From positions 942,696-1,006,695 of the forward strand of contig OW818690.1 of assembly GCA_942493315.1 (NCBI GenBank): DNA of 64,000 nucleotides, in the 5' to 3' direction. The position numbers were made by a program, and so were the translations under genes. A model generated the notes under the pieces. That model did no database searches and was not told the DNA's origin. It was given only the letters and a program-made list of their open reading frames with translations. The stretch is from an uncultured Bacteroidota bacterium. GTDB taxonomy: Bacteria > Bacteroidota > Bacteroidia > Bacteroidales > WCHB1-69. Below, piece by piece: positions 13,006 through 55,784 of this stretch (positions within the stretch are counted from its first letter, which is position 1; the number at the start of each line of letters is the position of its first letter).

Positions 13006-13911
13006 ATGAAAAAAATCTTACTCTTTATGGGTATGCTCTTTGCGTGTGTCGCAATGCAAGCCCAAACCATTATTTTTCAGGAAAATTTTGATACCTATAC
13101 AGCCGGAGACAAAATTGCGGCTGTAAACACCAGTTTTACTACATGGAGTGCAGCACCGGGAGGTTCTGAAGATGGTACTATTTCAACAGAACAAGCAGCA
13201 TCCCCTTCCAATTCGTTAAAAATTATATCCGGAAATGATGTTGTTTTCCCCATTGCCAATCTCACTACAGGTGAATATGTGATCGAATTTGACTATTACG
13301 TGCCCTCTACCGGCACCGGAGGCTATTTTAATGTATTGCACAACTTTGCAGGCACAAGCTCTGAATGGGCCTTAGAATGCTATTTTTCCAATAATGGAAC
13401 CGGTTATTTAAAAGTTGGAAAAGCCGTAGATGGAGAGATCTCTTTTACTTATCCTTCAAATCAGTTTTTTCATACGTATATTAAAATTGATTTAACTGAA
13501 GATGAAGCAAAATTAGAGATCAACAACAATGAAGTACACACCTGGCCATTCCATTATCAAGCCAATGATACCACCGGATTAATCCAATTGGGAGGTGTTA
13601 ACTTCTTTTCAGCTGCACCACCGGATTTAACCAATGGAACATATTATATTGACAATTTCAAACTAAGAATGGATGATGTTGCGGTTACTGAAACCAATAA
13701 AACGGTCAAAATTTATCCAAATCCTGCTACTCAAATTTTACATATTTCCGGAGATAATATCCAATTGATTGAAATGTTTAATATTGTAGGACAAAAAATC
13801 TACACCGGAACAGAAAACAGTATTAATATTGAGACCTATCCATCCGGCACTTATTTTGTTAAAGTAACATCCCCAGAAGGCACAATAACTAAAAAACTGA
13901 TTATAAAATAG
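13006..13911 (+). CDS. Secreted protein with a T9SS C-terminal sorting domain
   Basis: Signal peptide and the C-terminal sequence KIYPNPATQILHISG..GTYFVKVTSPEGTITKKLIIK. Confidence 0.6.
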   Translation: MKKILLFMGMLFACVAMQAQTIIFQENFDTYTAGDKIAAVNTSFTTWSAAPGGSEDGTISTEQAASPSNSLKIISGNDVVFPIANLTTGEYVIEFDYYVPSTGTGGYFNVLHNFAGTSSEWALECYFSNNGTGYLKVGKAVDGEISFTYPSNQFFHTYIKIDLTEDEAKLEINNNEVHTWPFHYQANDTTGLIQLGGVNFFSAAPPDLTNGTYYIDNFKLRMDDVAVTETNKTVKIYPNPATQILHISGDNIQLIEMFNIVGQKIYTGTENSINIETYPSGTYFVKVTSPEGTITKKLIIK

Positions 13912-13920
13912 TTAAGAATT

Positions 13921-14085
13921 AGGGCATTCCGGCTCGCATGCTCGCCGTCGGTCTCCGCCTTCAAGTCCGCACCAAACAGCCGTATGACTGCATGGTCGTA
14001 AAAGGAGCTCACAGGCTCGCTCTTTTACTCCCTGCATCATAGCGGCTGTTTGCTTTGCGGGCTTTCCCGGCTCCGCCCTAATGCG
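13921..14085 (+). repeat. GC-rich repeat family A, copy A1
   Basis: Starts AGGGCATTCCGGC and ends GGCTCCGCCCTAATGCG. It shares GTCGGTCTCCG(C/G)C and AGGAGCTC blocks with the copies at 41827-42056 and 56608-56816 (minus strand). Confidence 0.6.
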
Positions 14086-14542
14086 GACTAGAGGCTGGTG
14101 ACGGGAGACTGGAGACAGGCGACTGGAGAAGTTCGAAGTAAAACGTTCGACGTTAATTTGAAATTACAGTAAATTTTTAATTTTTTAATTATTCATTATT
14201 CATTCGTCCGCTGTCTGCAGTCCGCTGTCTGTAGTCTTTCATAAGCTCCATAGGAGTGTGATCTTTGTAGTTTGTGATGTGGATTTGTAATTTGTTAGGG
14301 GCGGAGCCCTGATATCTTAAATTGTTTATTCCGGGAAAGTGTGGAAACAGTTCTGGTTGAAAAAACGAAATTTTGTAACTCTTTTAATATGAAATAGATA
14401 CAAAATATTTTTCCAACACTTCTCCGGAATAATAAAATAAATTTTCTCGCAGAGGACGCAGGGACCGCGAAGCATTTTTCATAGAGACCTCTGTGATATT
14501 ATTCATGGTCTCCTTTGCGGTAAAATTAAATTAAAAAAGTTG

Positions 14543-14550
14543 TATATTTG
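14543..14550 (+). promoter_or_regulatory. -7 promoter box (TATATTTG) in front of the orphan RHS tip
   Basis: TAnnTTTG followed by TCGCATG, 31 nt upstream of the ATG at 14581. Confidence 0.4.
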
Positions 14551-14580
14551 TCGCATGTAAATCAACATTGAAATACTCTG

Positions 14581-15462
14581 ATGAACATAAATGGAAATTG
14601 GATGAATTATATGGATAATCCTACTTTATATAGAAGCGGTAACGCTATCCAACATTTACACTACTTGCCATTTGGAGAAGACTGGGTTGACCAACGCAAC
14701 ACCTCATGGAATGCTCCATACACCTTCTCCGGAAAAGAGAAAGATGCCGAAACCGGCTATGCGTACTTTGGCGCAAGGTATTATGATTCCGGGTTAAGCA
14801 TTTGGCTCTCTGTTGACCCGATGAGTGATAAATACCCCAGTATGTCGCCGTACAACTATTGTGCGAATAATCCGGTAATCTTGGTGGATCCGGATGGGAG
14901 AGAGATATATACATTTGATGAATCTGGAAATTTAGTAGATCAATGTACAGATGAAACGGGATTTGATCAAGTTAATGTAATAAAAAATGATGGAACGCTT
15001 ATTGAAGGTGACATGTATGAATATGGAACCATAACAAATGAATTTTCTGAACAAATGACACAAAAAAATTTTACTGAAATTACTGTTCCTGTTTTCAATA
15101 TCAAAGGTGATGAAAATGCTGATAATATTTTTCAATTTGTAGCCAACAATACTGGTGTTGAATGGAGTAGAACTGCAGTAGGAAATGAAGAAGGAACTAA
15201 TGGTGCTAATTATTTAAATACAACTAGAGAAATAGATCATGTACAGTCTAGTAAAAAAGTTAGTGCAATGATTTGGCGTGAACATTATCATAATCACCCA
15301 AGTGGAACTTTTGCACCCTCTTGGGGAGATACACAGGGCCCTTCTAAACATCAAAATGCTCGTTTTTTCTTATATACAAAGGAATATGGATCACACGAAT
15401 ATAATAGTGATGGATTCGTTAGTGAAGAGGATCAAATTTTAGAAATACAAAGAAGATACTAA
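14581..15462 (+). CDS. Orphan RHS core C-terminal fragment fused to a JAB/JAMM-like toxin domain
   Basis: RHS core end YLPFGE..YTFSGKEKDAETGYAYFGARYYDSGLSIWLSVDP..NPVILVDPDGRE (DPxG at aa 103-106). The C-terminal domain has an exact JAMM motif, H237-N-H239-x7-S247-x2-D250 (15289-15330). An in-frame stop at 14569 means there is no RHS body upstream. Confidence 0.7.
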   Translation: MNINGNWMNYMDNPTLYRSGNAIQHLHYLPFGEDWVDQRNTSWNAPYTFSGKEKDAETGYAYFGARYYDSGLSIWLSVDPMSDKYPSMSPYNYCANNPVILVDPDGREIYTFDESGNLVDQCTDETGFDQVNVIKNDGTLIEGDMYEYGTITNEFSEQMTQKNFTEITVPVFNIKGDENADNIFQFVANNTGVEWSRTAVGNEEGTNGANYLNTTREIDHVQSSKKVSAMIWREHYHNHPSGTFAPSWGDTQGPSKHQNARFFLYTKEYGSHEYNSDGFVSEEDQILEIQRRY

Positions 15463-16025
15463 TGAAAAAATTATTAAATATAGTGATTGTTTTTTTGTTA
15501 ATAATGAATCAATTATTTGCTCAACAAATTTTAACAAAATCAGTAGCAGTAATACAAGTTAAAAATATTGAAATTTATAAAGCATTAGAACTTATAATTG
15601 ATTTTGAAAAAGACAATGTTTATGGATCAATTTCAGATGACAAATGTTATATTATTGATTGGTATTTAAAGCCTTTAAATTTTCAAAATTCCGATACTGT
15701 GATTACATTTACATCCATTTATCGTTGCGATTTTTATAAAATATTTTCAGATTCACTTTATGGTGTATTCTATTTTAAAAACCATATTATTTTTGTTAAG
15801 AAAGAACTAGTGACCACTTTTTCAAAAACTTTTGATCTATTAAATGTAATTTTCCCAAACGATAATGATTTCAATATTGATGATTCACAAACAAAATGGA
15901 TATTTGAATTAAAAAATAATAAATTATATCCAATAAATTCATTTGGTCTTCTGTTTATTAATACTTATGGACCAAAAATTCAATATATTGAAGATATACC
16001 TGAGGAAATACCAAAGAATAAATAA
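15462..16025 (+). CDS. Putative cognate immunity protein
   Basis: Its start overlaps the toxin stop by 1 nt (TAATG). It is a 187-aa protein immediately downstream of a polymorphic-toxin tip. Confidence 0.45.
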   Translation: MKKLLNIVIVFLLIMNQLFAQQILTKSVAVIQVKNIEIYKALELIIDFEKDNVYGSISDDKCYIIDWYLKPLNFQNSDTVITFTSIYRCDFYKIFSDSLYGVFYFKNHIIFVKKELVTTFSKTFDLLNVIFPNDNDFNIDDSQTKWIFELKNNKLYPINSFGLLFINTYGPKIQYIEDIPEEIPKNK

Positions 16026-16059
16026 TATAATACATTATATGTATATCCGTTAACGTACC

Positions 16060-16260
16060 TTACTTACCATACCATGTAGTTTCAATAGATGCAAGTACCA
16101 GTCTATCAAATAAATGATCATTGAAGTAGCGACGATTAGTTTTATAACAAAACTCGTTTAAATAGTATTGGAGGTAATCTTCTTTAATATGGTGATTAAT
16201 TCCCAAAAAGGTTCTTTTTGCATTACTTATCATAGTATGTACCCAAGGTAAAACTTTAGA
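16060..16260 (-). pseudogene. IS1595-family transposase C-terminal remnant
   Basis: My manual minus-strand translation reads SKVLPWVHTMISNAKRTFLGINHHIKEDYLQYYLNEFCYKTNRRYFNDHLFDRLVLASIETTWYGK*. This matches the ISXO2-like pattern LPWVH..NAK..G..H....L..YL.EF.YR.NRR. No N-terminal part is present. Confidence 0.6.
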
Positions 16261-16774
16261 TACTCAAAATCCATGATTGGGGAGTAATAATTAAAAATGA
16301 GAGTTTCCTGTTTAGTATTAAAAAAGTATTTCTCAAAGGATTTATTTTTATATATATCAAACTTTTAAATCCACATTTTCACCTTAGTTTCCAAATTATT
16401 TTTGTAAATAAAAACAAAAACTCGGAATGCTCGATTGCTCAGAATGTTCAGAATGCTCGATTGCTCAGAATGCTCGTGTGCTCATTTTTTCATTTTTTAA
16501 TTTCAGAGTAACTACTTCATAAGAGAAAAGTCAGCAGATCTTGTCAGTGATGATCAAGGAAATGTCAATGGGGCGATATCTTACAAGTCGAATTAAGAAT
16601 CGCAACTTTGTTGTTAAGCGCTGGGATGATAAAAGGGAACTATTGACGGGCGACTGGAGTCTGGGTGTCAATGCCTAAAAATGGATGACAGGTTTTATCA
16701 AAAAGCTGCTATTCTGATAAAAGATTGGTACAGGATCTTAGCAGAATCAGCATTTCAATAGATTATTCAGAAAC

Positions 16775-16807
16775 AGAACAATTTACAAAAATCGTCACCA
16801 ACCTTTT
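16775..16807. repeat. Left copy of the 33-bp direct duplication flanking the IS
   Basis: agaacaatttacaaaaatcgtcaccaacctttt, identical to 18488-18520. Confidence 0.85.
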
Positions 16808-16910
16808 CCTGACTTTGACACAATAAATTTTTCCATTTTATAAATATAAGTAAATCAGTATTATATAAATTTTGCGTCACCAAAATGGGTGACGCAAGGT
16901 GAAATATGCT

Positions 16911-16918
16911 TAATTTTG
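16911..16918 (+). promoter_or_regulatory. -7 promoter box (TAATTTTG) internal to the IS, driving the transposase
   Basis: TAnnTTTG match ending 4 nt before the ATG at 16923, giving a near-leaderless transcript. Confidence 0.35.
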
Positions 16919-16922
16919 CGGT

Positions 16923-18464
16923 ATGTTTATACGAAAAAAGAAAAATAGATCTGGAACAACAAGTGTTGTTGTTGTTAATAAATCACATGGTAGATTCAAA
17001 GAATTAATTACCATTGGTGTGAGTGATGATGAAGTTCAAATTGAGCAATATATCAATCAAGCTCGCCAATGGATTGAAATTCAAAGTGGGACTCCAGATA
17101 TTTTTAAACAAAAAGCAAGAGAAGAGGAAGAAAAACAAGTTACAGAGCATTTGTTGTCTAATATTGAAAATGTGCTTATCAATGGCACACAACTAATTTT
17201 AGATAAAGTATTTAAAATCACGGGATTTGATGCCATAGAGGATGATATTTTACGTCAATTGGTGATTGCTCGTTTAGGACAGCCCATGAGCAAATCTGCT
17301 ACTGTTGATTATCTTAAATCATATTTTGATGAAGATATTCAGTTATATAAGATTTATCGTTATTTAGATAAACTTTATAATACACAGCAAGAACAGATCC
17401 AACGAATAAGCGTAGAACATACTCGTAAGATTTTAGGTGGCAAAATTGGTCTAATGTTTTATGATGTGACTACACTTTATTTTGAATCCGATTATAGTGA
17501 TGTGTTAAGAGAAAATGGTTTTTCAAAAGATGGCAAACACAGTCAACCACAGGTTGTACTGGGATTGTTAGTTAGTAAAGATGGTTATCCGCTTTCATAT
17601 TCATTATTTAATGGCTCTCAATACGAGGGGAGAACAATGTTGCCGATTGTTGAAGATTTTGTTCAAAGATTTCATTTAGATGATTTTGTGGTTGTTGCCG
17701 ATTCCGGGTTAATGAGTAAATCAAATATATCTCTATTGCAATCTGGTGGATACAAATATATTGTAGGAGCAAGAATAAAAAATGAGACAGAAGTAGTGAA
17801 AAGAAATATTTTGTCTTTACCAAAGCATGATAATGAATTTCATGAGCTTAAAAAAGGTGATTCCAGGTTAATCGTAAGCTATTCTTCAGTTAGAGCTAGA
17901 AAAGACAAATACAACAGAGATAAAGGTGTAAAACGACTTCAAAAAGCATATAAAACGGGAAATATCACTAAAGAGAACATCAACAAACGAGGATACAATA
18001 AGTTTTTGGAGATATCAGATAATGTAAAAGTAGTTATCAATCAAGAAAAAATAAAAGAAGACGAAAAATGGGATGGGTTAAAAGGATACATTACGAATAC
18101 ATCGCTTTCAGCTAAAGATGTTTATGAACAATATAACGGATTATGGGTTATTGAAAAAGCGTTCAGAATAACAAAAGGAACTCTTGAAATACGACCTATG
18201 TTCCACTTTACACCACGAAGAATAGAAGCACATGTTTGTATTTGCTTTGTTGCTTACAAAGTATATAAAGAATTAGAAAGAGTATTGAAAACTAATAATA
18301 TAAACTTAAGCGTGGATAAAGTTCTTAATATTGCTAAAACAATTACCACTATAAAAGTAAAATTACCAATTAGTGAAACAATACTCACAAAAACTATGAT
18401 TATAACTTCTAAACATAAATCAATTGCTATGCTTTTTGATGATCATTTCTGGAAATCCATTTAG
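16923..18464 (+). CDS. IS1634-family (IS4-like DDE) transposase
   Basis: The N-terminus MFIRKKKNRSGTTSVVVVNKSHGRFKELITIGVS is typical of IS1634-family transposases. DDE-type blocks are present (..FYDVTTLYFE.., ..VVVADSGLMS.., ..YNGLWVIEKAFRITKG..). Confidence 0.85.
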   Translation: MFIRKKKNRSGTTSVVVVNKSHGRFKELITIGVSDDEVQIEQYINQARQWIEIQSGTPDIFKQKAREEEEKQVTEHLLSNIENVLINGTQLILDKVFKITGFDAIEDDILRQLVIARLGQPMSKSATVDYLKSYFDEDIQLYKIYRYLDKLYNTQQEQIQRISVEHTRKILGGKIGLMFYDVTTLYFESDYSDVLRENGFSKDGKHSQPQVVLGLLVSKDGYPLSYSLFNGSQYEGRTMLPIVEDFVQRFHLDDFVVVADSGLMSKSNISLLQSGGYKYIVGARIKNETEVVKRNILSLPKHDNEFHELKKGDSRLIVSYSSVRARKDKYNRDKGVKRLQKAYKTGNITKENINKRGYNKFLEISDNVKVVINQEKIKEDEKWDGLKGYITNTSLSAKDVYEQYNGLWVIEKAFRITKGTLEIRPMFHFTPRRIEAHVCICFVAYKVYKELERVLKTNNINLSVDKVLNIAKTITTIKVKLPISETILTKTMIITSKHKSIAMLFDDHFWKSI

Positions 18465-39012: not shown

Positions 39013-39020
39013 TATCTTTG
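39013..39020 (+). promoter_or_regulatory. -7 promoter box (TATCTTTG) for the AAA ATPase gene
   Basis: It overlaps the TTG start tracked at 39018, which supports the ATG at 39036. Confidence 0.4.
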
Positions 39021-39035
39021 CCAAAAATTATATCC

Positions 39036-40238
39036 ATGAAACAGTTATTTCTTTCTTTTTATCGTAAACTTTCGGAAACAGATATGCGCTTTGAACGCTA
39101 TTTGTTGAAACAAATTGACTGGAACAATCGACTTATAGCCATCACTGGTGCTCGTGGTACAGGAAAAACAACCTTATTACTACAACATATCAAAGAGATG
39201 TACGGCAATAATCCCGAGGATATTTTATTTGTAAGTTTAGATAATATTTATTTCAGCAATAACAATTTATATACGCTGGCCAATGATTTTTACACTTATG
39301 GAGGTCGTGAGTTGTATCTTGATGAGGTGCACAAATACCCTAATTGGGCTCAGGAGATCAAAAATATGTATGATGATTTCCCAAAATTAAAAGTTATTTT
39401 TACCGGTTCCTCAATGTTGCAAATTTTTAACGCGGATGGAGATTTGAGCAGACGGGTGCGCCATTATCAACTGTTTGGATTATCATTTCGTGAATTTTTG
39501 ATTTTTGAAGGGATTGTTCCGATATCGCAATGCAATTTTTCTTTAGAACAAATTCTCCATCATCATATCGAAATTGTAAATCAAATAACGCATTCAAAAT
39601 CTATTTTATCAGCTTTTCAAAAATATTTACAATACGGTTATTATCCTTATTATCAAGAAGATACTCCTGGTTACAGTGATCGTGTTTTACAAACTTTCAA
39701 TACAGTAATGGAGAGTGACTTACCTAATGTAGAAAGGATCGATTTTGATTCGATTCATAAAATTAAAAAGTTATTTTACATTTTATCAGAAATGATTCCA
39801 TACACTCCAAACATATCGCAATTGAGTCAAATGGTGGGTGTAACGCGTCCAAGTTTAATGAATTATCTTCAACATCTCGAAAAATCGCATACCATTTTAT
39901 TATTGAAACAAAAAGCAACAGGTATGAGACAATTAGTAAAACCTGAAAAAATCTATCTGCAAAACACGAATTATACTTATGCTTTATCGAAGAACAATCC
40001 GGATGTTGGTAATTTGCGTGAAACTTTCTTTTTCAACCAGATCCAACAAAATCATAAGGTCACCTATACAGAAAACACCGATTTTTGTGTGGATGATCAA
40101 TACTATTTTGAAATAGGCGGAAAGAACAAAAACGGCAAGCAGATTCAGGGTCTTCAAAACTCCTTTTTAGCCCTTGATGGGATCACCTGTGGATTTAGAA
40201 ACGAAGTACCCCTCTGGCTATTTGGATTTTTGTATTAA
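39036..40238 (+). CDS. AAA-type ATPase (DUF4143-family-like)
   Basis: Walker A GARGTGKTT and Walker B LYLDEVH. The size and C-terminal region resemble the common Bacteroidota AAA+/DUF4143 proteins. Confidence 0.75.
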   Translation: MKQLFLSFYRKLSETDMRFERYLLKQIDWNNRLIAITGARGTGKTTLLLQHIKEMYGNNPEDILFVSLDNIYFSNNNLYTLANDFYTYGGRELYLDEVHKYPNWAQEIKNMYDDFPKLKVIFTGSSMLQIFNADGDLSRRVRHYQLFGLSFREFLIFEGIVPISQCNFSLEQILHHHIEIVNQITHSKSILSAFQKYLQYGYYPYYQEDTPGYSDRVLQTFNTVMESDLPNVERIDFDSIHKIKKLFYILSEMIPYTPNISQLSQMVGVTRPSLMNYLQHLEKSHTILLLKQKATGMRQLVKPEKIYLQNTNYTYALSKNNPDVGNLRETFFFNQIQQNHKVTYTENTDFCVDDQYYFEIGGKNKNGKQIQGLQNSFLALDGITCGFRNEVPLWLFGFLY

Positions 40239-41694: not shown

Positions 41695-41786
41695 GGGATA
41701 GGGGAGATCTTGTTCCTTTTCTTTCATAAGTTATAAGGTTTTAGGTTTTGGGTATTGGTTTTTTAGAAATTTTTCATTTTTCATTC
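41695..41786 (+). repeat. Repeat R-B copy 1 (shared about 95-nt block)
   Basis: gggataggggagatcttgttccttttcttt..agttataaggttttaggttttgggtattggttttttagaaatttttcatttttcattc. It is near-identical to 56300-56399 apart from an 8-nt indel. Confidence 0.7.
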
Positions 41787-41826
41787 GTCCGTAGTCCGTT
41801 GTCCGTAGTCTGTAGTCTATTTTCTC

Positions 41827-42056
41827 AGGGCGTGCCGGCTTCCCCACCCACAATCCAACCCACGCCGTCGGTCTCCGGCCCATTTTCAGAATGCTCAATG
41901 TGCTCGAATGCTCTTGTGCTCATATACTCGATAGCTCTTTTCATTTTTCATTTATAATTAGCACAATACTATTCACTATTCACTATTAGTTATTAACTAA
42001 TTTTTCATCCCCTAAGCAGCTCAACTTGCGGGGTATCTGGCCTCCGCCCTAATGCG
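41827..42056 (+). repeat. GC-rich repeat family A, copy A2 (interior replaced by low-complexity modules)
   Basis: The 5' part agggcgtgccggc..gtcggtctccggccc and the 3' part ctaagcagctcaacttgcggggtatctggcctccgccctaatgcg match A3 and A1. Confidence 0.6.
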
Positions 42057-42647: not shown

Positions 42648-45515
42648 ATGAAATTCAAATTACAAACTTGTTTTATTGGTTTAACTGTAGCAACTTTTTT
42701 AGTTACGATTGGCATTATATATTTTGGTTACATCAACAAAACTACAGATCGTCTTTATTTCTCAATAACCCAATTTGACTTGCCTAATAGTAATGACTTT
42801 ACTATTGGGGAGAACTCTGATATATGCTATAAGGATATACCTGAAAAGTATATGACTGTGTCGTATGATAATGGCGCATTTTCATACAAAATCAATAATT
42901 CAGATAGTTGTTTGTATTATTTCATAAACGACACCAATTATAACAAAGTTACTATACACATAAACGATAATATACAAGTTTTTGGACAAGTTTTTTCCGG
43001 TAAGTATTTAATCAACAAGCTGAAAAAACTCGACAATGAGTATTATATGCTTAAAGATGTAATGATTGATGATTTGAGTACTAAAATTCGCAATTCAATT
43101 AACACTGGTGAAATTGAATTCAACTCATTTATTCAAAAGAAACATAATAAATACTATCTTATCATTCTTGACAAATTTACAAAAATAAATAATATTGGTT
43201 ACTGTTATTCAAAAACTTTAAGTCCGGGTCAAGAATTTAAGATCCAGTTTTTCAAAATGAATAGTTGGAGTGTAAAAAAACAAGAAAAAAGATTTTGGGA
43301 TTATGTGCAATTTTGGGATTACAAAACCTATCTTTCTGACAGTATACGTTCTTATTTTGCAAAACCAGTGCAAATATTTACTGAGTGGGGTGCTGGTCAT
43401 ATCCTTGTAAAGAGAAATGATTTGCATTATTCAGCAACTTTCCCTAAAGCAATATCAACTACTATCCCAATAAAAAGGATAATTGAAACTGCTGATAGTT
43501 CTGAAACAGGGGTATATCTCAAACAAATGCTGAAATCATACTATATGCCTACTGATTTTTATATTCCTGCATTTTCTAATGCACTTTCTGAAAATATTTG
43601 TGAACTTTCGGTAGCAGAAAATTTTAACTTGGTTTTTCAAAAAGCAAATAATAGAGATACAGCAAATTGTCTAACGTCGGGTAGTTTAATACCAAAAATT
43701 AATATAAAAAATCAACAACTTGTTACAGGTGGTATTACGTACAAAACCCGGGTTTTAAATACTGCATTTTATTGGTCGAAGCATTGGTCGTTAGCTATTG
43801 CATGGTTTATATTGATGTTAATTTTACATTTTTCCTTTCCAAAATCAGGCGATGAACCATATGCAGAAAAAGTAAAAGACATTCGTTCATATATTTGTGG
43901 AATGTTTACTTTGTTCTGGTTTTTCCTTAATCAGAAGCTTTTAATTGCCGAAAAACTGACATTTACTTATCCTTATTTTGAAAAAATTTATTCTGTTGTC
44001 TACATAACAACATTGTTTTCGCTTTTTGCTGTGTTTTTGCTTATAGTGTTGATAAATCGTTCGTATTTTGATGAAAATGCACTTGGCGAAGACAGGTACA
44101 GTAACAACCCTTTTAGAGTAAAAAAATCAGGTTGGTTCAATTGGATTATTGCATGCGGAATAACTTCGATCTGTATTTATGCATACTGCAAAATAAAATC
44201 AAATTTTATCTTGCCGATTTGGAATAGTTATATTGACAAAGATTCTTTAGATATATGGACATTTTGGAAATGGCAAAAGATAGGTATGCTAAATGATAAT
44301 CATTTTACTGTATTTATGATAATTGGCAGCTTATTAATTTTCTTGTTGGTATTATTTATAATCTTATTTTGTATTAAAAGAAAATGGTTTAAACGAATTG
44401 AAAAAGTAAAAAAAATAACTCGTTGGACTGAACAGATATATGATATAATATATAGCAGAGTTTCAAATTTGATTAATTTTAAAAAACCTAAAACTTATGC
44501 GATTTACCTTATAATAATAATTATTGCATTATTCTTTGTGGTTGCACTATTAGGTAATTCTGGAACGGCAGTTGCCATTATAATGCTTTTACTTTTGCTT
44601 GGCAAAACAATGAAAGTTTTAATTGATGACTTTAATCAGATAGAGGATTTCAACAAATGGGCGAAATGGATATTCTTGACGATGTTGGGAGTCTGTATAT
44701 TTGTTGGAATCGGTATGTATGATTTCGGATTTTTCATTAATGTTTTTGGGATTGCTGTTACTTGGATTTTTTTAATTATTTTATCAGCAAAGTATTTTGA
44801 TAATTATGCAGATGAAAACGAGACAATTATCAAAAAGCAAATAAAAAAAGGACTGGGTTTAGGTTTTTTACTGGTTATTGTTAGTTGTTTCATAATTTTT
44901 TGGTGGAATTCAAACCCTGAAAAAATTGATTATGAAAGAAATACTCGTAGAATACAGAACTGCATTTATCCAAATCAAGTAAAAGAGGCAGGTTATCTTT
45001 ACACCGAAAGCGATATGCAGTGGATGGAAGTAATGCGGCACTATGCAGAAAAGGCGAGCAAATCAACAGACGATATTTACAGTGAAGATAATAATTTTCA
45101 CCAACTTATTGCATCTGGGCAATCGCCTGTTGTGCTTAATGATGTAAGCATACCTACTGTTTATCTTGGCTCTTTGCGTTGGTTGGGATTGTTTGGTTTG
45201 TTTTATGGAATAATGGCTTTGGGTTTTTTTGTCTATTCGTTCAGCATTGGTGATGTTAAAAGAATTAATAGTCGCGGCAATAACATTTATCCAATCAACC
45301 TTCAATTGATAAGGCGATTGCTTGCAGGTAACTTATGGATTTTTGTTACACTATATCTGATTAAATCTTATTATTGGGACAAATTACCCGTGCCTTTCAC
45401 TGGACGCCTGATACCTGGATTTGGAGTTGATGCAGTTGGAGAAGCATTAGAAATTATTGTGTTATTTGCATTTATGTGTTCTTTATATAATCCTTATAAA
45501 CAAAATATAAAATGA
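42648..45515 (+). CDS. Operon gene 1: 955-aa polytopic membrane protein, with an unknown N-terminal domain of about 360 aa and a divergent SEDS (RodA/FtsW)-like C-terminal part
   Basis: About 13-14 hydrophobic helices. Motifs comparable with E. coli RodA as I recall it: GNSGTAVAIIML vs PDLGTSILVALS; RRIQNCIYPNQVKEAGYLYTES vs [27 protein letters not shown]..LGLFG vs HTDFIFAVLAEELGLVG; LPVPFTGRLIPGFGVDAVGEALEIIVLFAF vs LPVVGVPLPLVSYGGSALIVLMAGFG. Confidence 0.5.
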   Translation: MKFKLQTCFIGLTVATFLVTIGIIYFGYINKTTDRLYFSITQFDLPNSNDFTIGENSDICYKDIPEKYMTVSYDNGAFSYKINNSDSCLYYFINDTNYNKVTIHINDNIQVFGQVFSGKYLINKLKKLDNEYYMLKDVMIDDLSTKIRNSINTGEIEFNSFIQKKHNKYYLIILDKFTKINNIGYCYSKTLSPGQEFKIQFFKMNSWSVKKQEKRFWDYVQFWDYKTYLSDSIRSYFAKPVQIFTEWGAGHILVKRNDLHYSATFPKAISTTIPIKRIIETADSSETGVYLKQMLKSYYMPTDFYIPAFSNALSENICELSVAENFNLVFQKANNRDTANCLTSGSLIPKINIKNQQLVTGGITYKTRVLNTAFYWSKHWSLAIAWFILMLILHFSFPKSGDEPYAEKVKDIRSYICGMFTLFWFFLNQKLLIAEKLTFTYPYFEKIYSVVYITTLFSLFAVFLLIVLINRSYFDENALGEDRYSNNPFRVKKSGWFNWIIACGITSICIYAYCKIKSNFILPIWNSYIDKDSLDIWTFWKWQKIGMLNDNHFTVFMIIGSLLIFLLVLFIILFCIKRKWFKRIEKVKKITRWTEQIYDIIYSRVSNLINFKKPKTYAIYLIIIIIALFFVVALLGNSGTAVAIIMLLLLLGKTMKVLIDDFNQIEDFNKWAKWIFLTMLGVCIFVGIGMYDFGFFINVFGIAVTWIFLIILSAKYFDNYADENETIIKKQIKKGLGLGFLLVIVSCFIIFWWNSNPEKIDYERNTRRIQNCIYPNQVKEAGYLYTESDMQWMEVMRHYAEKASKSTDDIYSEDNNFHQLIASGQSPVVLNDVSIPTVYLGSLRWLGLFGLFYGIMALGFFVYSFSIGDVKRINSRGNNIYPINLQLIRRLLAGNLWIFVTLYLIKSYYWDKLPVPFTGRLIPGFGVDAVGEALEIIVLFAFMCSLYNPYKQNIK

Positions 45516-46921
45516 GAGAAGAAAAAAAAGCAGTTCTGAAAAAATTAGGTAAAATTTTGCTAAATAATGGTTTGTTGATTGCGATTTTGTTGTATTTTAT
45601 TACATGTGGATTTTTTTGCAACAATTTTAACGGCAAATGGTTATTGTGGTTGTTTATTAGCTGTTTTATAGGTTGGTTGTTTTCATTCTTTTATAAAGAG
45701 TATGAAAAAGCTGATGAAATGACCATTGAACCTGTTATTTATGATCACAGATATGACGAGCAAGTAAGTTGGAAAGACAGATTGAAGAATATAGGAAAAA
45801 GCGTACGTGAGATGTCAGGGTGGAATTACTTACGTTGGGCTTTAATTATATCATTTTTATCGGTCGCATGCTATATTATGCACGAAAGCTTATCCTCGTT
45901 ATGGATAAAGAATGAAAAATGGGATAAAATTTTTTGTTGGTTTTTATCAATGATTGTTATTATAACCTTATTTTGGATAACTGGTTGGATAACCCATCAA
46001 CATTCAAAAATAAATAACAGCTACAAAAAATTGTTTTTTTTCAGTTGTATTGGACTTTACATTCTCTTCGATTTAGCTCCCTTTACTTTCAATTATTTTC
46101 ATATATATAGCAATTTTGGGAATACTCAAATAATGGCTCAGACCGTAAAGGCAAGTGATGAATTGATTAAACTTATAAAACCTATTATTTGGGAAGAAAT
46201 AAAACCTAAACAAATTATTTTAGATAGTTTAAATAATGTAAACAAAGAATATTTTAATGAGATAAAAAACTGTGAGAAACGAAAAGAAATATTATTGGAT
46301 TCATTTGACAAAATGGCTACTAGCATTAATCCATCTGGTAGAACTTCTAAATTTAAAACAACAAAAGACGGTGAAACTACTAAAACAGAAAGTTCAATTA
46401 CAACGATTAATAATCGGGTTAATCAAATAAGTCGACAAATAGAAAGTCTCAATAAGAAAGTTAAGGGAAAAGAGATATTTGAAAAAACAACTCCAATAGT
46501 AAATGATTTAAAAAGAACAGATATATTATTAAATGAAATTGATTCATTAATTAGAATATACAATGAAGCAAAATTTGATAATAATAAGGAAAATCAAATA
46601 AATATAACAAGAGATATAATTTTTAATGTAGGAAAATTAAATGGAGAATTTATTGATGATTCGATTTCAAAAAAACTTATTAGTATTATCAATTCTGAAC
46701 AAATTGAAAGGGATAAAGCATTAAATGATTTATTTGAATTGATTCTAGGTAAATATGAAGATAATAACAATCAATTGCCTATTGAAAAAAGAGAAATCCA
46801 TACACTTTTACATAAAGTTAGTATTCAGAGCGTTGCTTTAAGTGCCTTAATTGATTTAGCTCCTATTTTTTTGGCACTCTTGATTACTTTTCCAACAACA
46901 AACAGGAGAAAAAGACAATGA
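45512..46921 (+). CDS. Operon gene 2: 469-aa membrane protein with a central coiled-coil-like region and a C-terminal TM
   Basis: ATGA overlap with gene 1. It has about 5 N-terminal TM helices, a long charged Lys/Glu/Asn-rich helical region, and a terminal helix. The short motif DLAPF/DLAPIF is repeated. Confidence 0.55.
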   Translation: MREEKKAVLKKLGKILLNNGLLIAILLYFITCGFFCNNFNGKWLLWLFISCFIGWLFSFFYKEYEKADEMTIEPVIYDHRYDEQVSWKDRLKNIGKSVREMSGWNYLRWALIISFLSVACYIMHESLSSLWIKNEKWDKIFCWFLSMIVIITLFWITGWITHQHSKINNSYKKLFFFSCIGLYILFDLAPFTFNYFHIYSNFGNTQIMAQTVKASDELIKLIKPIIWEEIKPKQIILDSLNNVNKEYFNEIKNCEKRKEILLDSFDKMATSINPSGRTSKFKTTKDGETTKTESSITTINNRVNQISRQIESLNKKVKGKEIFEKTTPIVNDLKRTDILLNEIDSLIRIYNEAKFDNNKENQINITRDIIFNVGKLNGEFIDDSISKKLISIINSEQIERDKALNDLFELILGKYEDNNNQLPIEKREIHTLLHKVSIQSVALSALIDLAPIFLALLITFPTTNRRKRQ

Positions 46922-49251
46922 GTCAAGAGACGTCACATATTCGTATTAACCTGTTTTCTTTTTTCAACCACGAACAAGAAACAAACAAAATTCTAGAAAA
47001 CTTTGGGACATTACTTTGTCAAGACAAAGTTTTCGATAAAAGTTGGGGATTTATACGAAAAAAAGTAGAAGGAACTGAAAACTCATTTTATATTGGTGGT
47101 GGCAGAATGTATTTACCAAAACGACAACTTTCTTTTTACAATGAACAACCACCAAGGGAAATTTTTGGAGATATAAAAGAAAATGATATTGAAAAAAACA
47201 TCCAAGATTGGTGTAATTCAGCTGATATTTTTCTTCTTTGTTTACACTCAAATAATAAACCTGAAACAAAGTTTATTTCTCGATTAAATTGGTATATAAA
47301 AAAACACAATAGAAATAAAACAATTTTATATACGGTAACAAATTATATTAGACAGTTTGAATATTCCACTTTCGATGAATATGCTAATTTTTCAGTTACT
47401 CTTAATCAAGAATTGAATCATGCATATTTTCCGTATTCTGAAACAAATGAATTTATAAATTGGAAAAATGAAAAATTTTGTATTTGCAAAGAACTATTCT
47501 GTTTTACTAAACAAGCAAACAGTTACATTGATTTTTTACTATTTTGCCTCAATCAACTATACAAAGATATTGCGGAAATTAAAATTTCAGACAATAAAGC
47601 GTATCATTACAAAACAACGAATATAAACTTTAAATCATACAATAATATGGGAACAACTATAAAACTTGCAATAGTCGGCGCACCTAAAAACGGTAAATCG
47701 CATTTAATTTGGGATATTTACCAAATTTTCGAACAACAAGGTCGTAATTTGACTTTTGTAGAAGATGATTCATATGCAAGTCCTCAAATGCTTGCAAATA
47801 AATTGCTATCTGAAGACGCGCTAAATAAAACGCCTCACTCTTTGCAAACCAAAAGCAAAAATCATTACAAAGGACAAAATAAAGATTTTATTTTAGAATT
47901 TATGGATGTCGCGGGTGAGGCTTTTGATGACGGCAAAGTGATAACCGAACAATTTCGCACAATTAAAATGATGCTTAAGAAAAGTAGTTATTTCAATAAT
48001 AATAAGCCATTTATAGAACATTCTGATGATAAAAAAATCAGTATAACGTTTAATAAAAATGAAAATACTACAACTCAAAGTCCGTCTCAACTCCAAACAG
48101 ACGAACCGTCTGGACGTGAGGGAATACCACAAACGCAACAAGATGAAAGCAATGTTTCTCAAAATAATTTAAACAGGAATATAAAAACCCAACAAAGAAA
48201 TGGGAAATATATTGCTAAAAATTTTGAGAGGTACGATACTGAGAGTTTAATTGCATGTTTGAAACAAGTTGTTACTTTCGCATTACGAACAGACGGATTA
48301 AGTCGTTATCACGATACACTAAGAGTAATTAATAACGTTGATTTTTGGAATGATTTTTATGCTTATGTTTTTTGTGATAATTGTACAGACATTGTTTTTT
48401 GTGATTTAGTTACTTTACCAAATAACATGACTGCTATTTCTGAAACAGGCAAAGCATTTAGTCAATGTGTTTCAGGCGTTGGCGAGTTTTTAGCAGAAAA
48501 AAACACAAATTTCAAAGGTCGAAAGAAACCAAATATGTACGCTGTCTTTCGAGGATTAGATGCTATGATTACCTGTGATGATCAGAAAGATCCACAAGAA
48601 AACAAACTAAAAGAAATTTTAAAAAATACTAATGATGAAACAAAGAAAAAGTTATTACCCTTTGTGTATTTTCTATTTCATTTATCCGTTTATCAAAATT
48701 TCATGAATGATTATTTTACAAAAGATGATTTCGATAAATTATGTGAAAGTATTATTAATAATAACAATTGTTTTATCAAACAACTACAGTCTCTAAATCT
48801 AGATTTAACCGATAAAACTAACCTACAAACTTTTTTGTCTGGATTGCTCAAAAACGATACGGAATTTACTATAAACGATAGCAGGTCTACAAAACTTAAT
48901 GATGTATTCTACGATAGAATAGAGAAGCTAAGAAATATGAACGGTATGCTTGAAAGATTCAATGGAAATTCAGATATTTTTCCTCATATTTATTTTACGG
49001 CATATCCTATTTGTCAGAAATTAGACATTCATAAAAATTTGCCTGTAGATGGTAACCCTAATAATATTGACGGTTTAACTCCCACAGATTTACGTTTCCC
49101 TTTGGGGGTATATAATTTTATTACAGATTTAGTATATTCACATACGCAAAGCGGCAAACAGGGAACTGATATGGAAAACTATTTGTATTTAAGTAAGAAT
49201 GTACAAAAACAAAACAAGTTTAAACAGATATGGAAAATAATAACGAGATAA
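46918..49251 (+). CDS. Operon gene 3: 777-aa soluble P-loop GTPase-like protein (active-looking core preceded by a degenerate copy)
   Basis: ATGA overlap with gene 2. Walker A/G1 is G254-APKNGKS-261 (47677-47700) after the strand IKLAIV. A DxxG/G3-like D330-VAG-E sits after the strand ILEFM (47905-47919). The N-terminal 150 aa show a strand pattern without a P-loop. Confidence 0.6.
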   Translation: MSQETSHIRINLFSFFNHEQETNKILENFGTLLCQDKVFDKSWGFIRKKVEGTENSFYIGGGRMYLPKRQLSFYNEQPPREIFGDIKENDIEKNIQDWCNSADIFLLCLHSNNKPETKFISRLNWYIKKHNRNKTILYTVTNYIRQFEYSTFDEYANFSVTLNQELNHAYFPYSETNEFINWKNEKFCICKELFCFTKQANSYIDFLLFCLNQLYKDIAEIKISDNKAYHYKTTNINFKSYNNMGTTIKLAIVGAPKNGKSHLIWDIYQIFEQQGRNLTFVEDDSYASPQMLANKLLSEDALNKTPHSLQTKSKNHYKGQNKDFILEFMDVAGEAFDDGKVITEQFRTIKMMLKKSSYFNNNKPFIEHSDDKKISITFNKNENTTTQSPSQLQTDEPSGREGIPQTQQDESNVSQNNLNRNIKTQQRNGKYIAKNFERYDTESLIACLKQVVTFALRTDGLSRYHDTLRVINNVDFWNDFYAYVFCDNCTDIVFCDLVTLPNNMTAISETGKAFSQCVSGVGEFLAEKNTNFKGRKKPNMYAVFRGLDAMITCDDQKDPQENKLKEILKNTNDETKKKLLPFVYFLFHLSVYQNFMNDYFTKDDFDKLCESIINNNNCFIKQLQSLNLDLTDKTNLQTFLSGLLKNDTEFTINDSRSTKLNDVFYDRIEKLRNMNGMLERFNGNSDIFPHIYFTAYPICQKLDIHKNLPVDGNPNNIDGLTPTDLRFPLGVYNFITDLVYSHTQSGKQGTDMENYLYLSKNVQKQNKFKQIWKIITR

Positions 49252-51842
49252 AATTTTCGGTAATAGTAAGAGGTTCACTTACAACAAAAGAGGGTTATGT
49301 AGAAATTGCTTCAACACAAACTCATGCTATTTTACCAAACGATTTTGAAAATAGACACTCAGAAGATTTTTCGAGCGAATATGCCTCTTTGCTTGCGTTT
49401 AGGACAGAGAATTCTCCTTTTTTGTCAGTTATTCATATTCAAGGGCAACACATTGGAAGTTCATTGGCTGGTAGAATCTACGATACAAGAATTTTCTACA
49501 ATATTGATTCTGCAAGCTTGCGAAATTGTCATTTAAAAATTGGATCTATTGTCGGTAGTTTACCTCGAATACTGTCATTTTCCGAGAAGAAATTTGATTT
49601 AACCAACAGTGTATACGTAAAACCGTATAGGTTGTCAAAATCAGAGGCCGCAATAAATGGACTTAGCAGATATATAATGCAAGCCATTGTTGAAGGTAAA
49701 CGGCTTATTGTGAAATTAGATAGAAAAGATGCAGGATATTGGAAAGAAAATGGTGTTTTGGAAAATAATGAAGCACAAATGTTATTCGTTGCTATTGATT
49801 CTTTACCTGAAATATTGAGACCAGTTGCCTCTTTTGCGTTGTCGGTTGATGAGAAATTTGATAAAGACATATTAAAATATACTAATATAATTTTATATCA
49901 TGGCAACCGTAATAATCTTGCAATTAAAATTGATTCAAATACTTGCATTGAAGTTGCTTGGGATGATTTGGATAAAAATAACAACGACAAATTTTTCAAT
50001 CAACAAGATTTTTTTTCAAAAGTAGCATTGTGCACAATTAACAAATATCAAAGTGAAAATTTTGACTTCAAATACAAAGATTTTTTCAATTCAAAGTTAT
50101 CCTCAAAAGGAATGCTAGATGGTATTTATGATGTTCAAAAAGACCCTAATTTAAAAAAAAGTGTTGAATACCTCAAAATACAAAAAGATTGGGAACGACT
50201 TATTCGACACCCTGAAGTAATTGATAAAATAAGAGTAAATGCAGAAGAATTAGATTTTAATTTAAATAATTTATATAACTTCTTTGAAAATAATAAAAAA
50301 GTAGAAATCAGAGAAAAATATGTAGAATTTTTCTGTCTGACAAAATCTGAATTACAGGTCAATAAGCAACTTGAAATATTAAAAACAATTCTAAATATTC
50401 CAGATGCTAATATTGAAAAAGAATTAAAAAATCTATTATTAAATAAATTGACATTACAAATATTTCATCAAAACTTAAATATTGATGAATGGATAGAAGT
50501 TGCAGAACTTTTTATTAATACAAAATATGAGCAACAATTAATTGAAAAGACAAAGCAACAAGATTTATACTTTTTTGAGAAACTTTATAAGAAAGGTAAA
50601 TACTTGGAGATTGTCGGACAATGTTTCAAAGAAACGACTGCTTACAAAAATAATTTTAAAGAAATATGTCAAAAGCCATTTATTGATTATTTGCCTGAAG
50701 AAAAATTACAAATGTTGAGATTTAAGTTTCTTTCTAATTGTGAAAGCTCTGATTTTAAGGAAATATATAAAGATCTCAAATTTGAAGAAGTAGAAAAGTT
50801 TTTGGTAAATAAAAACAATGATGAATATATTGTAAAATTGATAATTAAATATTTTCCAAATAAATGTAAGCAATTTATTGAACAAAATTCTGAAATTACC
50901 ATTTCTCAAATTGGAAAAGCTATATTAAATAATGATGATGTTACTAATAGTGAAATTTATAAGTTGTACAAAAAAGCAGATCTGAAACCCACAAAACCGC
51001 AAATAGAATTAACAATTTCTAATCTTGAAAATATATATAATAATACCCAAAAACTTGAATTTGACATATCAAATGAAATTACAAAACTATATATATCTCA
51101 TCCAATAATAACCAATTGGAAAAAAATTCATGAAACAACAAATCAAAATCCACCGGAAGAATTTACATTAAACGAGATTATTGATAAAAATGAACTTAAG
51201 GCTTATCAATATTTATTAAAACAAAACATTAAATTACCTGAGATTAATATTGAAAAAATGATCAAAAACACTAATGATTATGACAGTTTTTGCAATTTAT
51301 TTGATGATCTTACAGAATTAAAAATCGATTTTTCAGAGTTTAAAAAAACATTAGAAAAGAAACAATTCGAAAGGAAAAATATTATTTTAAAAAAATATTT
51401 TAACAATAAAAGCTCATCATCTTTATCACAAGAAAATATTAGGAAAAGATTGGTTATTTTAATTTTAATTGCTTTGATCATTGGTTTTGGAGGTGGATAT
51501 AATATGAGATCTTTAATTACAAGTAAAAAAGAACAGAAGGAAACAACTTTGAACTCAATTCAAGATACTGTAAATATTCAAACACATGATTTAGTAAATC
51601 AAACTTTTTTAATTTTTTATAGAAAACAAATTAATAATGATATTTATTCAAATAACGATACGATCAAAGCAAACGAAAAGAGTTTAGCGGATTGGTTTTC
51701 TCTATATAAGGAAAAGAATTTGATAGTGGACTCTATTAAATTAAAGGATTCAGTTTATTTATTAAAATTAAAAATAGATGGACCTGAATCAGCAACAATC
51801 TTTTATCAGAAAATAGACTCAATAATTAACAATTTGAAATAA
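49230..51842 (+). CDS. Operon gene 4: 870-aa mostly helical protein with a single TM near the C-terminus
   Basis: 22-nt overlap with gene 3. The TM LVILILIALIIGFGGGY spans aa 741-757 (51450-51500), with a tail of about 110 aa beyond it. I recognise no catalytic motif. Confidence 0.55.
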   Translation: MENNNEIKFSVIVRGSLTTKEGYVEIASTQTHAILPNDFENRHSEDFSSEYASLLAFRTENSPFLSVIHIQGQHIGSSLAGRIYDTRIFYNIDSASLRNCHLKIGSIVGSLPRILSFSEKKFDLTNSVYVKPYRLSKSEAAINGLSRYIMQAIVEGKRLIVKLDRKDAGYWKENGVLENNEAQMLFVAIDSLPEILRPVASFALSVDEKFDKDILKYTNIILYHGNRNNLAIKIDSNTCIEVAWDDLDKNNNDKFFNQQDFFSKVALCTINKYQSENFDFKYKDFFNSKLSSKGMLDGIYDVQKDPNLKKSVEYLKIQKDWERLIRHPEVIDKIRVNAEELDFNLNNLYNFFENNKKVEIREKYVEFFCLTKSELQVNKQLEILKTILNIPDANIEKELKNLLLNKLTLQIFHQNLNIDEWIEVAELFINTKYEQQLIEKTKQQDLYFFEKLYKKGKYLEIVGQCFKETTAYKNNFKEICQKPFIDYLPEEKLQMLRFKFLSNCESSDFKEIYKDLKFEEVEKFLVNKNNDEYIVKLIIKYFPNKCKQFIEQNSEITISQIGKAILNNDDVTNSEIYKLYKKADLKPTKPQIELTISNLENIYNNTQKLEFDISNEITKLYISHPIITNWKKIHETTNQNPPEEFTLNEIIDKNELKAYQYLLKQNIKLPEINIEKMIKNTNDYDSFCNLFDDLTELKIDFSEFKKTLEKKQFERKNIILKKYFNNKSSSSLSQENIRKRLVILILIALIIGFGGGYNMRSLITSKKEQKETTLNSIQDTVNIQTHDLVNQTFLIFYRKQINNDIYSNNDTIKANEKSLADWFSLYKEKNLIVDSIKLKDSVYLLKLKIDGPESATIFYQKIDSIINNLK

Positions 51843-51845
51843 AAT

Positions 51846-54659: not shown

Positions 54660-54831
54660 CAAAAATAATAGATTAGGCTAATAATATTTTTCAGACTGAA
54701 GTGAAAATTTCGCCTCCATCTGAGTCACATGTTTTACCAAAAATTGGAGTTTATTTTTTGAATTTTTCTTTTAAGCAAGAATATTTAAAACCTTAATTTT
54801 TTTTTATAAACTATAAAATTTTTAAAGTTAT

Positions 54832-55329
54832 ATGATAAAAAATGAATTTTTCTGGGGGATTGTTGTTGGAGTTGTTCTAACCATTTTTGGGACACTGGTA
54901 CAATTTAAACTTTTTGCCTATTATGATAAACAAAAAATAAACAATGAATTGGCAATCATAACTTGTAAAACTATAAATTCGCGTTTGATTAGATCAAGTA
55001 ATGTTATTACATCATCCTCAAGTGATGTCTTTAATGAAAGATGGAATGAGTATATTATTGAAGGTGTTTATAAATGGAATGAATATAGAGGTTTGATTGA
55101 GCATTATTTGGCTGGTACTAAACCATTATTGAAATCTGAATTCAATTCTCTGAATTCAAAATTTGGTGTGTTACATAATAACTTAATAAGGATTCGTCAG
55201 CTTCAAAATTCAATTTCAAAAGATAAACAAATTGAGCTTGTTGTAAAAAAAAAAAAATCATTAGATATTTGTAAGGATATTCAAGAAACTTTAAACAAAT
55301 TCGAAAATGAACTTTTACAGTTTAATTAA
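54832..55329 (+). CDS. Hypothetical N-anchored 165-aa protein downstream of the operon
   Basis: N-terminal TM (FFWGIVVGVVLTIFGTLV) followed by helical sequence. Same strand and the same AT-rich composition as the operon. Confidence 0.4.
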   Translation: MIKNEFFWGIVVGVVLTIFGTLVQFKLFAYYDKQKINNELAIITCKTINSRLIRSSNVITSSSSDVFNERWNEYIIEGVYKWNEYRGLIEHYLAGTKPLLKSEFNSLNSKFGVLHNNLIRIRQLQNSISKDKQIELVVKKKKSLDICKDIQETLNKFENELLQFN

Positions 55330-55765: not shown

Positions 55766-55773
55766 TATCTTTG
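55766..55773 (+). promoter_or_regulatory. -7 promoter box (TATCTTTG) immediately upstream of the 21-nt tandem array
   Basis: TAnnTTTG match ending 11 nt before the first repeat unit. Confidence 0.35.
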
Positions 55774-55784
55774 TGTTGGATCAG

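Follow-up and report, generated by a model that had tools for sequence, protein, structure and literature searches.

What becomes of an Rhs toxin domain, a part of a bacterial contact weapon, that has no Rhs body in front of it? The question is raised by an open reading frame (ORF) of 293 amino acids (aa), located at 14581-15462 on the plus strand and starting with ATG, in a 64,000-nucleotide (nt) stretch of the chromosome of an uncultured Bacteroidales bacterium (GenBank assembly GCA_942493315.1, contig OW818690.1, positions 942,696 to 1,006,695). The whole stretch is referred to here as the window, and all coordinates are counted from its first nucleotide. A first-pass annotation, made from the sequence alone, had regarded the ORF and the gene that follows it as a displaced or orphan toxin/immunity cassette. 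Orphan Rhs modules are thought to be silent stores of alternative toxins and sources of immunity. According to the analysis described here, the locus is probably a solitary, self-expressed orphan Rhs C-terminal (CT) toxin/immunity module of the catalogued Tox-JAB-1 type in a Bacteroidales chromosome. The orphan Rhs-CT/immunity module as a kind is already known; what sets the window cassette apart is its solitude, its start at a conserved shell-internal Met following a fixed deletion, and its conserved promoter segment. It leaves the overall view of polymorphic toxin systems as it was, and its main value is to be sought in the conserved expression cap and the prediction of a periplasmic target for the toxin.

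Structure and origin of the truncated toxin gene

The predicted product consists of a 17-aa remnant of an Rhs shell, an Rhs-associated core of about 80 aa and a Tox-JAB-1 tip of 187 aa that resembles a zinc metallopeptidase. The core (aa 28-106; 14662-14898, plus strand) was matched by the NCBIfam model TIGR03696, a search proposed in the first-pass annotation, at a score of 73 bits where the cut-off is 32.5 (E 2.1e-20) and over model positions 1-75 of 76. Its residues read ..YLPFGE..FGARYYDSGLSIWLSVDP..LVDPDGRE. The presence of an RHS core, claimed earlier, was thereby borne out, but the statement that the ORF contains only the last 100 aa or so of a core has to be amended, since the first 17 aa derive from within the Rhs shell. 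The core ends with ..PVILVDPDG; the border with the tip lies at ..PVILVDPDGRE, and paralogues are wholly unlike one another past DPDG. The guanine-plus-cytosine (GC) content is 43.8% for the core but drops to 31.5% for the tip and to 21.6% for the gene that follows, and GC at third codon positions drops from 49% (core) to 13.5% (tip). A drop as abrupt as this one at DPDG is characteristic of the border between an Rhs core and its tip.

In front of the core there is hardly any Rhs sequence. An in-frame TGA at 14569-14571, noted at first pass as a stop at 14569, lies 12 nt 5' of the toxin ATG. Likewise confirmed was the absence of an RHS body upstream: the six-frame translation of the 64-kb window contained no YD motif and no second Rhs core, and no rhs gene is present in the 14.5 kb upstream and the 48 kb downstream of it, which makes the cassette solitary. 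A full-length Rhs/YD-repeat toxin comprises a YD shell of at least about 1000 aa and an N-terminal delivery domain, whereas the window ORF retains a shell remnant of 17 aa only.

The origin of these 17 residues explains where the gene starts. The leader (aa 1-17, MNINGNWMNYMDNPTLY; 14581-14631, plus strand) matches sequence from the interior of the Rhs shell, with counterparts in the same genome at aa 454-470 of P0128 (898 aa) and at aa 182-198 of P0136 (607 aa). In both proteins it is internal and stands in the context '..KLTGPNxLMNINGNWMNFxYMDNxTLYTSAYLV..', about 113 residues ahead of '..WITDGSGNAIQHLHYLPFGEDW'; L002 likewise carries it internally ('..LNTLMNINGRWVNFATMDNPTLY..'). The short relatives of the window ORF fall into classes according to their N-termini. 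In class (a), to which the window ORF belongs, the N-terminus reads MN(INGNWMN)FAYMDNPTLYGSG followed by NAIQHL..., and the leader stretch common to the class (a) copies is MNINGNWMNFAYMDNPTLYGSG. Since the leader is internal in the longer Rhs proteins and precedes their core at this distance, class (a) is, as judged from the alignments, a deletion derivative in which the loss of about 113 aa joined the leader to the core and left an internal Met of the shell as the start codon. The Rhs-derived DNA begins at about 14572 (..AAT ACT CTG ATG, encoding NTLM), some 9 nt 5' of the shell-internal Met codon.

The truncated form is far from unique. A search of 5.8 billion proteins yielded 3482 matches, and among the best 120, which were inspected, nearly all are 'RHS repeat-associated' proteins of Bacteroidales with a length of only 200-470 aa that share the N-terminal 100 aa or so alone with the window ORF and differ in their tips. 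One of them, P0001, is 100% identical to the window ORF and lies on a contig of 3,468,611 bp that also encodes ten short relatives (P0010, P0016, P0019, P0021, P0028, P0033, P0081, P0082, P0083 and P0086). With the exception of P0086, which represents class (b), these relatives belong to class (a), and the genome contains at least ten class (a) cassettes, the window copy included, with different tips. Among 80 related loci outside this genome, the usual arrangement consists of an Rhs ORF with an open frame of more than 2000 aa ahead of FGARYYD, followed by arrays of short cassettes. JAB1 tips are found both on short cassettes and on a long Rhs protein (L009, ORF of at least 2290 aa). A scan of metagenomes for the invariant leader 29-mer revealed no contig beyond one already found.

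The first-pass annotation had also proposed that a full-length RHS gene with the same core might permit recombinational switching of tips. Longer genes with a related core are those of P0128 and P0136, the cores of which are 88% identical in protein sequence to that of the window ORF over 98 aa. Because of these longer Rhs genes, a substrate for tip switching is, on sequence grounds, available in the genome, and the cassette could recombine through its core onto a full Rhs body and so change the toxin that is fired. P0128 is a shell-plus-core protein with an unrelated tip, and P0136 carries, on a partial Rhs shell, a second and different Tox-JAB-1 tip of the HSHP type.

Could the short protein itself be the weapon? 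It would then be an autonomous effector of 293 aa, consisting of core and tip, that is loaded in trans onto an Rhs cage or a secretion system, with the leader serving as a recognition tag. This idea draws on the conservation of the ATG, the leader and the promoter in many short forms, on the thousands of 'RHS repeat-associated' proteins of 200-470 aa in Bacteroidales metagenomes, and on the solitary copies, some of which adjoin no rhs gene. Arguing against it is the composition of the protein, in which Pfam and NCBIfam models revealed no signal peptide, PAAR, VgrG-binding domain or sorting domain of the type IX secretion system (T9SS). Moreover, the core part is predicted by AlphaFold2 (AF2) to be disordered without a shell (predicted local distance difference test, pLDDT, below 50), and the leader is a mere remnant of shell sequence. 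We know of no description of Rhs tips that are loaded in trans. An effector of this kind is therefore quite improbable, and a truncated toxin that lacks both the YD-repeat cage and a delivery domain would not be exportable.

The Tox-JAB-1 tip and its exported partner

The tip (aa 107-293; 14899-15462, plus strand, stop codon at 15460-15462) is composed of a six-stranded beta subdomain and the alpha/beta domain of Tox-JAB-1. The Pfam model PF15659 (Toxin-JAB1) scores 57.6 bits over aa 173-247, where the cut-off is 21 (E 1.8e-15; model positions 2-80 of 87). In this match, which answers the earlier proposal of a search with JAB toxin models, lies HNHPSGTFAPSWGD, that is H237-x-H239-x7-S247-x2-D250, and the JAB/JAMM motif recognised at first pass is thus exact. 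Among 27 aligned homologues no variation occurs at E194, H237, H239 or D250, and S247 is retained in at least 90%. The codons of these predicted catalytic residues, all on the plus strand, are located at 15160-15162 (E194), 15289-15291 (H237), 15295-15297 (H239), 15319-15321 (S247) and 15328-15330 (D250). Together with N190-x3-E194, the HxH, S and D residues complete the Tox-JAB-1 signature, NxxxE/HxH/S/D (Zhang et al. 2012, PMC3482391). A literature search brought up no paper under the name Toxin-JAB1.

The tip is not decaying. In comparison with L085, a JAB1 homologue of 73% identity that is truncated elsewhere (it starts with MTHRATSWNAPYTF), the ratio of nonsynonymous to synonymous substitutions (dN/dS) came to 0.24 in the tip as opposed to 0.03 in the core, at a dS of about 1. 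On the evidence of this ratio the tip is under purifying selection.

Membership of the tip in the JAB fold is plausible from the structure model. AF2, supplied with the 27-sequence alignment, gave a tip model with a pLDDT of 93.7 and a predicted template modelling score (pTM) of 0.90, in which the six strands of the beta subdomain (aa 107-175) precede the alpha/beta domain, E194 is placed before a strand, HxH terminates a strand and the helix that comes next begins with S..D. The zinc site E..HxHx7Sx2D and the modelled positions of HxH and S..D resemble those of the JAMM/MPN+ isopeptidases (AfJAMM, Rpn11, AMSH). The list of non-significant Foldseek matches in the PDB was headed by Prp8 Jab1/MPN chains (6s8q_J, 7px3_J, 2p8r) and the proteasome entries 5gjq_V and 3jck_G; when the family profile was compared with PDB sequences, an Rpn11-like protein and AfJAMM ranked at the top and were aligned over the motif with a non-significant E of 1.4-2. 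The tip differs from the isopeptidases in that the similarity stays below significance in both comparisons (Foldseek E at least 0.1, template modelling (TM) score at most 0.34), in its additional N-terminal beta subdomain and in its context of an extracytoplasmic toxin. The single tip sequence gave only chance matches to PDB sequences, Foldseek with the full 293-aa model gave nothing significant, and a comparison with viral structures was of no help (best E 8e-3, unnamed or 'minor capsid' proteins). To our knowledge, Tox-JAB-1 is a toxin domain for which no activity has been determined.

The toxin gene is followed by a gene for a protein of 187 aa (15462-16025, plus strand). As stated at first pass, the two overlap by 1 nt (TAATG, at 15462), and translational coupling is predicted. 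The protein begins with a signal peptide (aa 1-20) for which cleavage between LFA and QQ is predicted (MKKLLNIVIVFLLIMNQLFA followed by QQ); in the absence of a cysteine it is of the type-I kind. Residue Q21 is invariant in the family. The ORF has no match in Pfam or NCBIfam at E values up to 1, and the same holds for 10 other JAB1-adjacent ORFs. There is a single close homologue, P0122 (91% identity), and it is encoded directly after the toxin P0002 (85% identical to the window toxin) with an overlap of 4 nt. A phmmer search of 1.84 billion representative proteins revealed five further members at 33-35% identity, four of which start with a signal peptide (the N-termini of P0125 and P0126 are shortened as called); the family amounts to 6 clusters at 50% identity among the 1.84 billion.

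The ORFs that follow 12 other JAB1 tips point in the same direction. Eleven of the 12 are complete, all 11 encode 159-253 aa, and 10 of these 11 begin with a signal peptide or a lipobox, a lipobox-like cysteine being present in five of the other JAB1-adjacent ORFs (L029, L039, L011, L079 and L005). An hhalign comparison of the window family with the ORFs after other JAB1 tips gave a probability of 92% and an E value of 5.6e-7. In L085 (features noted at 1-48 and 823-872) a signal-peptide-like ORF begins 4 nt past the stop codon. The proposal that the downstream ORF is an immunity gene is supported by these sequence comparisons, namely by the position of P0122 after P0002 and by the hhalign similarity to exported ORFs next to other JAB1 tips. 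Strict adjacency to a Tox-JAB-1 toxin, as is characteristic of Imm65, was found in the window (the 1-nt overlap) and for P0122 after P0002.

Among the immunity families surveyed by Zhang et al. (2012, PMC3482391) the sole lipoprotein is Imm65, which partners Tox-JAB-1, and Tox-JAB-1 itself is specific to Bacteroidetes and to RHS proteins. The window pair agrees with the Tox-JAB-1/Imm65 pair in its occurrence in Bacteroidetes, the fusion to an RHS core, the NxxxE/HxH/S/D signature and the export of the partner. It differs in that the partner matches no Pfam model, Imm65 included, carries a type-I signal peptide (LFA, QQ) in place of a lipobox and belongs to a very small family. Immunity proteins normally sit where the toxin acts, and the predicted export of the window partner argues for a toxin that acts outside the cytoplasm, with a target in the periplasm.

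This location bears on a published suggestion about the toxin clades of the JAB superfamily, which lack the residues of the ubiquitin-tail tunnel and may be nucleases (Zhang et al. 2012, PMC3482391). Applied to the window, it would make the tip a nuclease acting in the cytoplasm, as has been proposed for RadC-like clades too, and the exported partner would block uptake of the toxin rather than bind it in the periplasm. A weak match to RadC over the HxH region (E 0.25) and the structure search without a significant peptidase match accord with this idea. The exported state of 10 of the 11 complete JAB1-adjacent ORFs does not, nor does the exceptional position of Imm65 as a lipoprotein (PMC3482391). 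It also conflicts with the rule that immunity proteins reside at the toxin's site of action, and the best PDB profile matches, though non-significant, are JAMM isopeptidases aligned over the motif. A cytoplasmic nuclease is accordingly an unlikely alternative, and the consistently exported Tox-JAB-1 partners predict, against the nuclease suggestion, a target in the periplasm or the envelope.

From these properties the following scheme emerges for a self-expressed orphan module. The toxin gene and the downstream gene would be co-transcribed. Inside the cytoplasm the truncated toxin would probably do no damage, since it probably acts on an extracytoplasmic target, for which peptide or isopeptide bonds of the envelope are candidates. 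The exported partner would neutralise the same toxin when neighbouring cells deliver it into the periplasm, and the producing cell would thus possess a standing immunity.

Candidate promoter segment and upstream region

A self-expressed module requires a promoter of its own. A segment of 38 nt (14539-14576, plus strand) is a candidate promoter and 5' untranslated region (5'UTR); it contains the -7 box TATATTTG at 14543-14550 and the in-frame TGA. The box conforms to TAnnTTTG, the -7 consensus of Bacteroidetes, and starts 38 nt and ends 30 nt ahead of the ATG; the 31 nt given at first pass were counted from its last base. In L081, L082 and L084, three independent contigs that carry class (a) cassettes with other tips, 37-38 of the 38 nt are identical, whereas the adjacent core is 61% identical at third codon positions and 93-97% identical at first and second positions; the box itself does not vary among the homologous loci. 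Near invariance of the 38 nt beside a core with such divergent third positions indicates that 14539-14576 is constrained, or homogenised by gene conversion, and the earlier idea that the cassette owns a promoter has gained strength. Across the window TAnnTTTG is not enriched (105 observed, 101 expected). A box that ends 10-70 nt 5' of the ORF was found for 11 of 38 long window ORFs as opposed to 4.7% of random positions, a six-fold difference. The differently truncated L085 also has such a box (TATCTTTG), 21 nt 5' of its ATG. A scan for sigma-70 promoters (8 found, 12.6 expected) is uninformative for Bacteroidetes.

The conservation extends farther upstream. The region 13920-14538 (plus strand) is non-coding, resembles the region 5' of other class (a) cassettes and consists of a mosaic of dispersed motifs similar to repetitive extragenic palindromic (REP) sequences. 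It aligns end to end with L081 7434-7990 (blocks of 81-97% identity) and is near-identical to L084 1-590. The genes that flank this upstream region of about 650 nt differ among the window, L081 and L084. The L081 cassette is likewise solitary and is preceded by a gene for EPSP synthase. Since a solitary class (a) cassette of another assembly shares the upstream region beside unrelated genes, the sequences suggest dispersal of a family more than a single event of displacement. In the first-pass reading of a displaced or orphan cassette, 'orphan' agrees with the lack of rhs genes in 64 kb, and 'displaced' is not borne out, given this second cassette.

Within the upstream region, an insertion of about 125 nt (14317-14441, no strand assigned; inverted repeat I1) resembles a miniature inverted-repeat transposable element (MITE) with imperfect terminal inverted repeats of 31 nt; it is present in the window and in L084 and missing from the homologous region of L081. 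The REP-like motifs (..CTCCGCCCTAATGC.., ..TTCATTTTTCATTCGTC.. and GGCATTCCGGCTCGCA) vary in order and orientation in this genome and in related metagenome-assembled genomes. They were located at 14045-14084, 14187-14237, 41725-42055 and 56338-56655 of the window, at L040 1781-1794 and at L083 105-120, and their occurrence in unrelated intergenic regions as well means that they are not specific to the cassette. A structured RNA was considered and rejected: Rfam gave nothing at the gathering threshold in the whole window and only a chance-level match in 13900-14620. Rejected, too, was a bounded mobile element; the search for direct and inverted repeats in 13800-17000 revealed none that bounds the unit, only the internal MITE-like insertion and low-complexity matches.

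Insertions and transposase genes in the vicinity could also be taken as signs of decay. The locus would then be a dead fragment left behind by rearrangement of an rhs gene through an insertion sequence (IS), neither expressed nor selected, and the box would be fortuitous. Apart from the chance frequency of TAnnTTTG in the window and the MITE-like insertion upstream, IS1595 debris and an IS4-like transposase gene lie directly downstream, and the ORF lacks two codons that its paralogues possess. A dead fragment, however, would hardly preserve two intact ORFs with all catalytic residues and a tip with the low dN/dS reported above. Nor would it be expected that the 38-nt box/5'UTR segment is invariant across contigs with about 39% synonymous divergence, that the same leader heads intact class (a) paralogues in at least ten copies, or that toxin and immunity gene are kept together elsewhere at 85% and 91% identity. 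Decay is thus very unlikely.

Several observations weigh against the interpretation of the locus as a self-expressed orphan Tox-JAB-1/immunity module. It is from conservation alone that promoter activity is deduced, and the conservation of the 38 nt could in part reflect gene conversion among the repeated copies. The Foldseek comparison of the tip with the PDB returned no significant neighbour (top E 0.11-0.25, TM 0.21-0.34). The candidate immunity protein lacks both a Pfam match to Imm65 and a lipobox cysteine, and its hhalign score stems partly from the aligned signal peptides. As regards tip switching, P0128 and P0136 may themselves be truncated, or may be mid-size Rhs proteins, and the core of the window differs from those of its relatives at 39% of third positions, which would lower the efficiency of recombination.

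Orphan rhs-CT/rhsI modules are reportedly found in Salmonella, E. coli and Dickeya (Poole et al. 2011; Koskiniemi et al. 2014), and they also occur in bee-gut bacteria (PMC5727410). The classical orphan follows the main rhs gene directly and, as a rule, has neither a start codon nor a promoter of its own. With the enterobacterial and bee-gut orphans the window cassette shares the 5'-truncated rhs fragment with its core, the variable tip and the immunity gene, the core homology to longer rhs genes of the genome, and the break in composition at the core/tip junction. Unlike the classical orphans it is solitary instead of downstream of a main rhs gene, starts at a conserved shell-internal Met after the fixed deletion of about 113 aa, and possesses the conserved promoter-like segment together with about 650 nt of conserved non-coding DNA. 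In one Bacteroidales lineage, orphan modules thus appear to have a selectively maintained promoter and start codon; such modules would be standing immunity operons and not silent spares.

Another kind of expressed immunity gene is known from Bacteroidales in arrays of acquired interbacterial defence that is associated with a recombinase (rAID arrays), which hold orphan immunity genes of low GC content (PMC12247911). The cassette is similar in its low-GC immunity gene, its conserved intergenic sequence and its predicted expression independent of a weapon locus. It differs in being single, in its intact toxin domain and in having neither a tyrosine recombinase nor an array. Membership in rAID was ruled out: no recombinase is among the neighbours, and they do not form an array of co-oriented short low-GC genes.

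A more far-reaching model combines a dispersed family of self-expressed units with the assignment of Tox-JAB-1 to the envelope-directed peptidases rather than the nucleases. Each unit may comprise a promoter 'cap' placed 9 nt 5' of the shell Met, the fixed deletion of about 113 aa, the core and interchangeable tips, and the upstream element of about 650 nt may travel with the cassettes to unrelated sites by an undescribed mechanism. Such units would amount to a dedicated means by which many Rhs tips, together with their immunities, stay expressed at sites remote from any rhs locus. As a whole this combination is doubtful.

Neighbouring genes and repeats

Upstream of the cassette the neighbours encode two T9SS-sorted proteins (Por_Secre_tail). 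A DUF1295 protein and a BNR protein are also encoded among the neighbours of the cassette. Downstream, a C-terminal fragment of an IS1595-family transposase (16060-16233, minus strand) was recognised with PF12762 (E 2.3e-7) and with NF033547 (E 2.1e-9, last 35 model positions only). It is followed by an intact gene for a DDE (IS4-like) transposase (16923-18464, plus strand; PF01609 DDE_Tnp_1, E 2e-13), and between the two, at 16400-16490, are short tandem repeats with a unit of 26 nt (TCAGAATGCTCGATTGCTCAGAATG). Elsewhere the window has the character of ordinary chromosomal DNA and encodes, for example, EF-G, FeoB and a histidine kinase.

Further features were noted at a distance from the cassette. 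An ATPase gene of the AAA_14/DUF4143 type at 39018-40238 (plus strand) was matched to PDC-S01, a candidate defence system of PADLOC (E 8e-30). At 42648-55329 (plus strand), five consecutive large ORFs (955, 469, 777, 870 and 937 aa), abutting or overlapping, together with an ORF of 165 aa, form a 12-kb operon of proteins that could not be annotated, with no match in Pfam, NCBIfam or PADLOC. This block is bordered by the dispersed repeats at 41725-42055 and 56338-56655, and just 3' of the five genes, at 55758-55988, there is a tandem array of about 11 units of 21 nt (..ATGATCGGTTTCAA(A)TT..) that are 68-87% alike.

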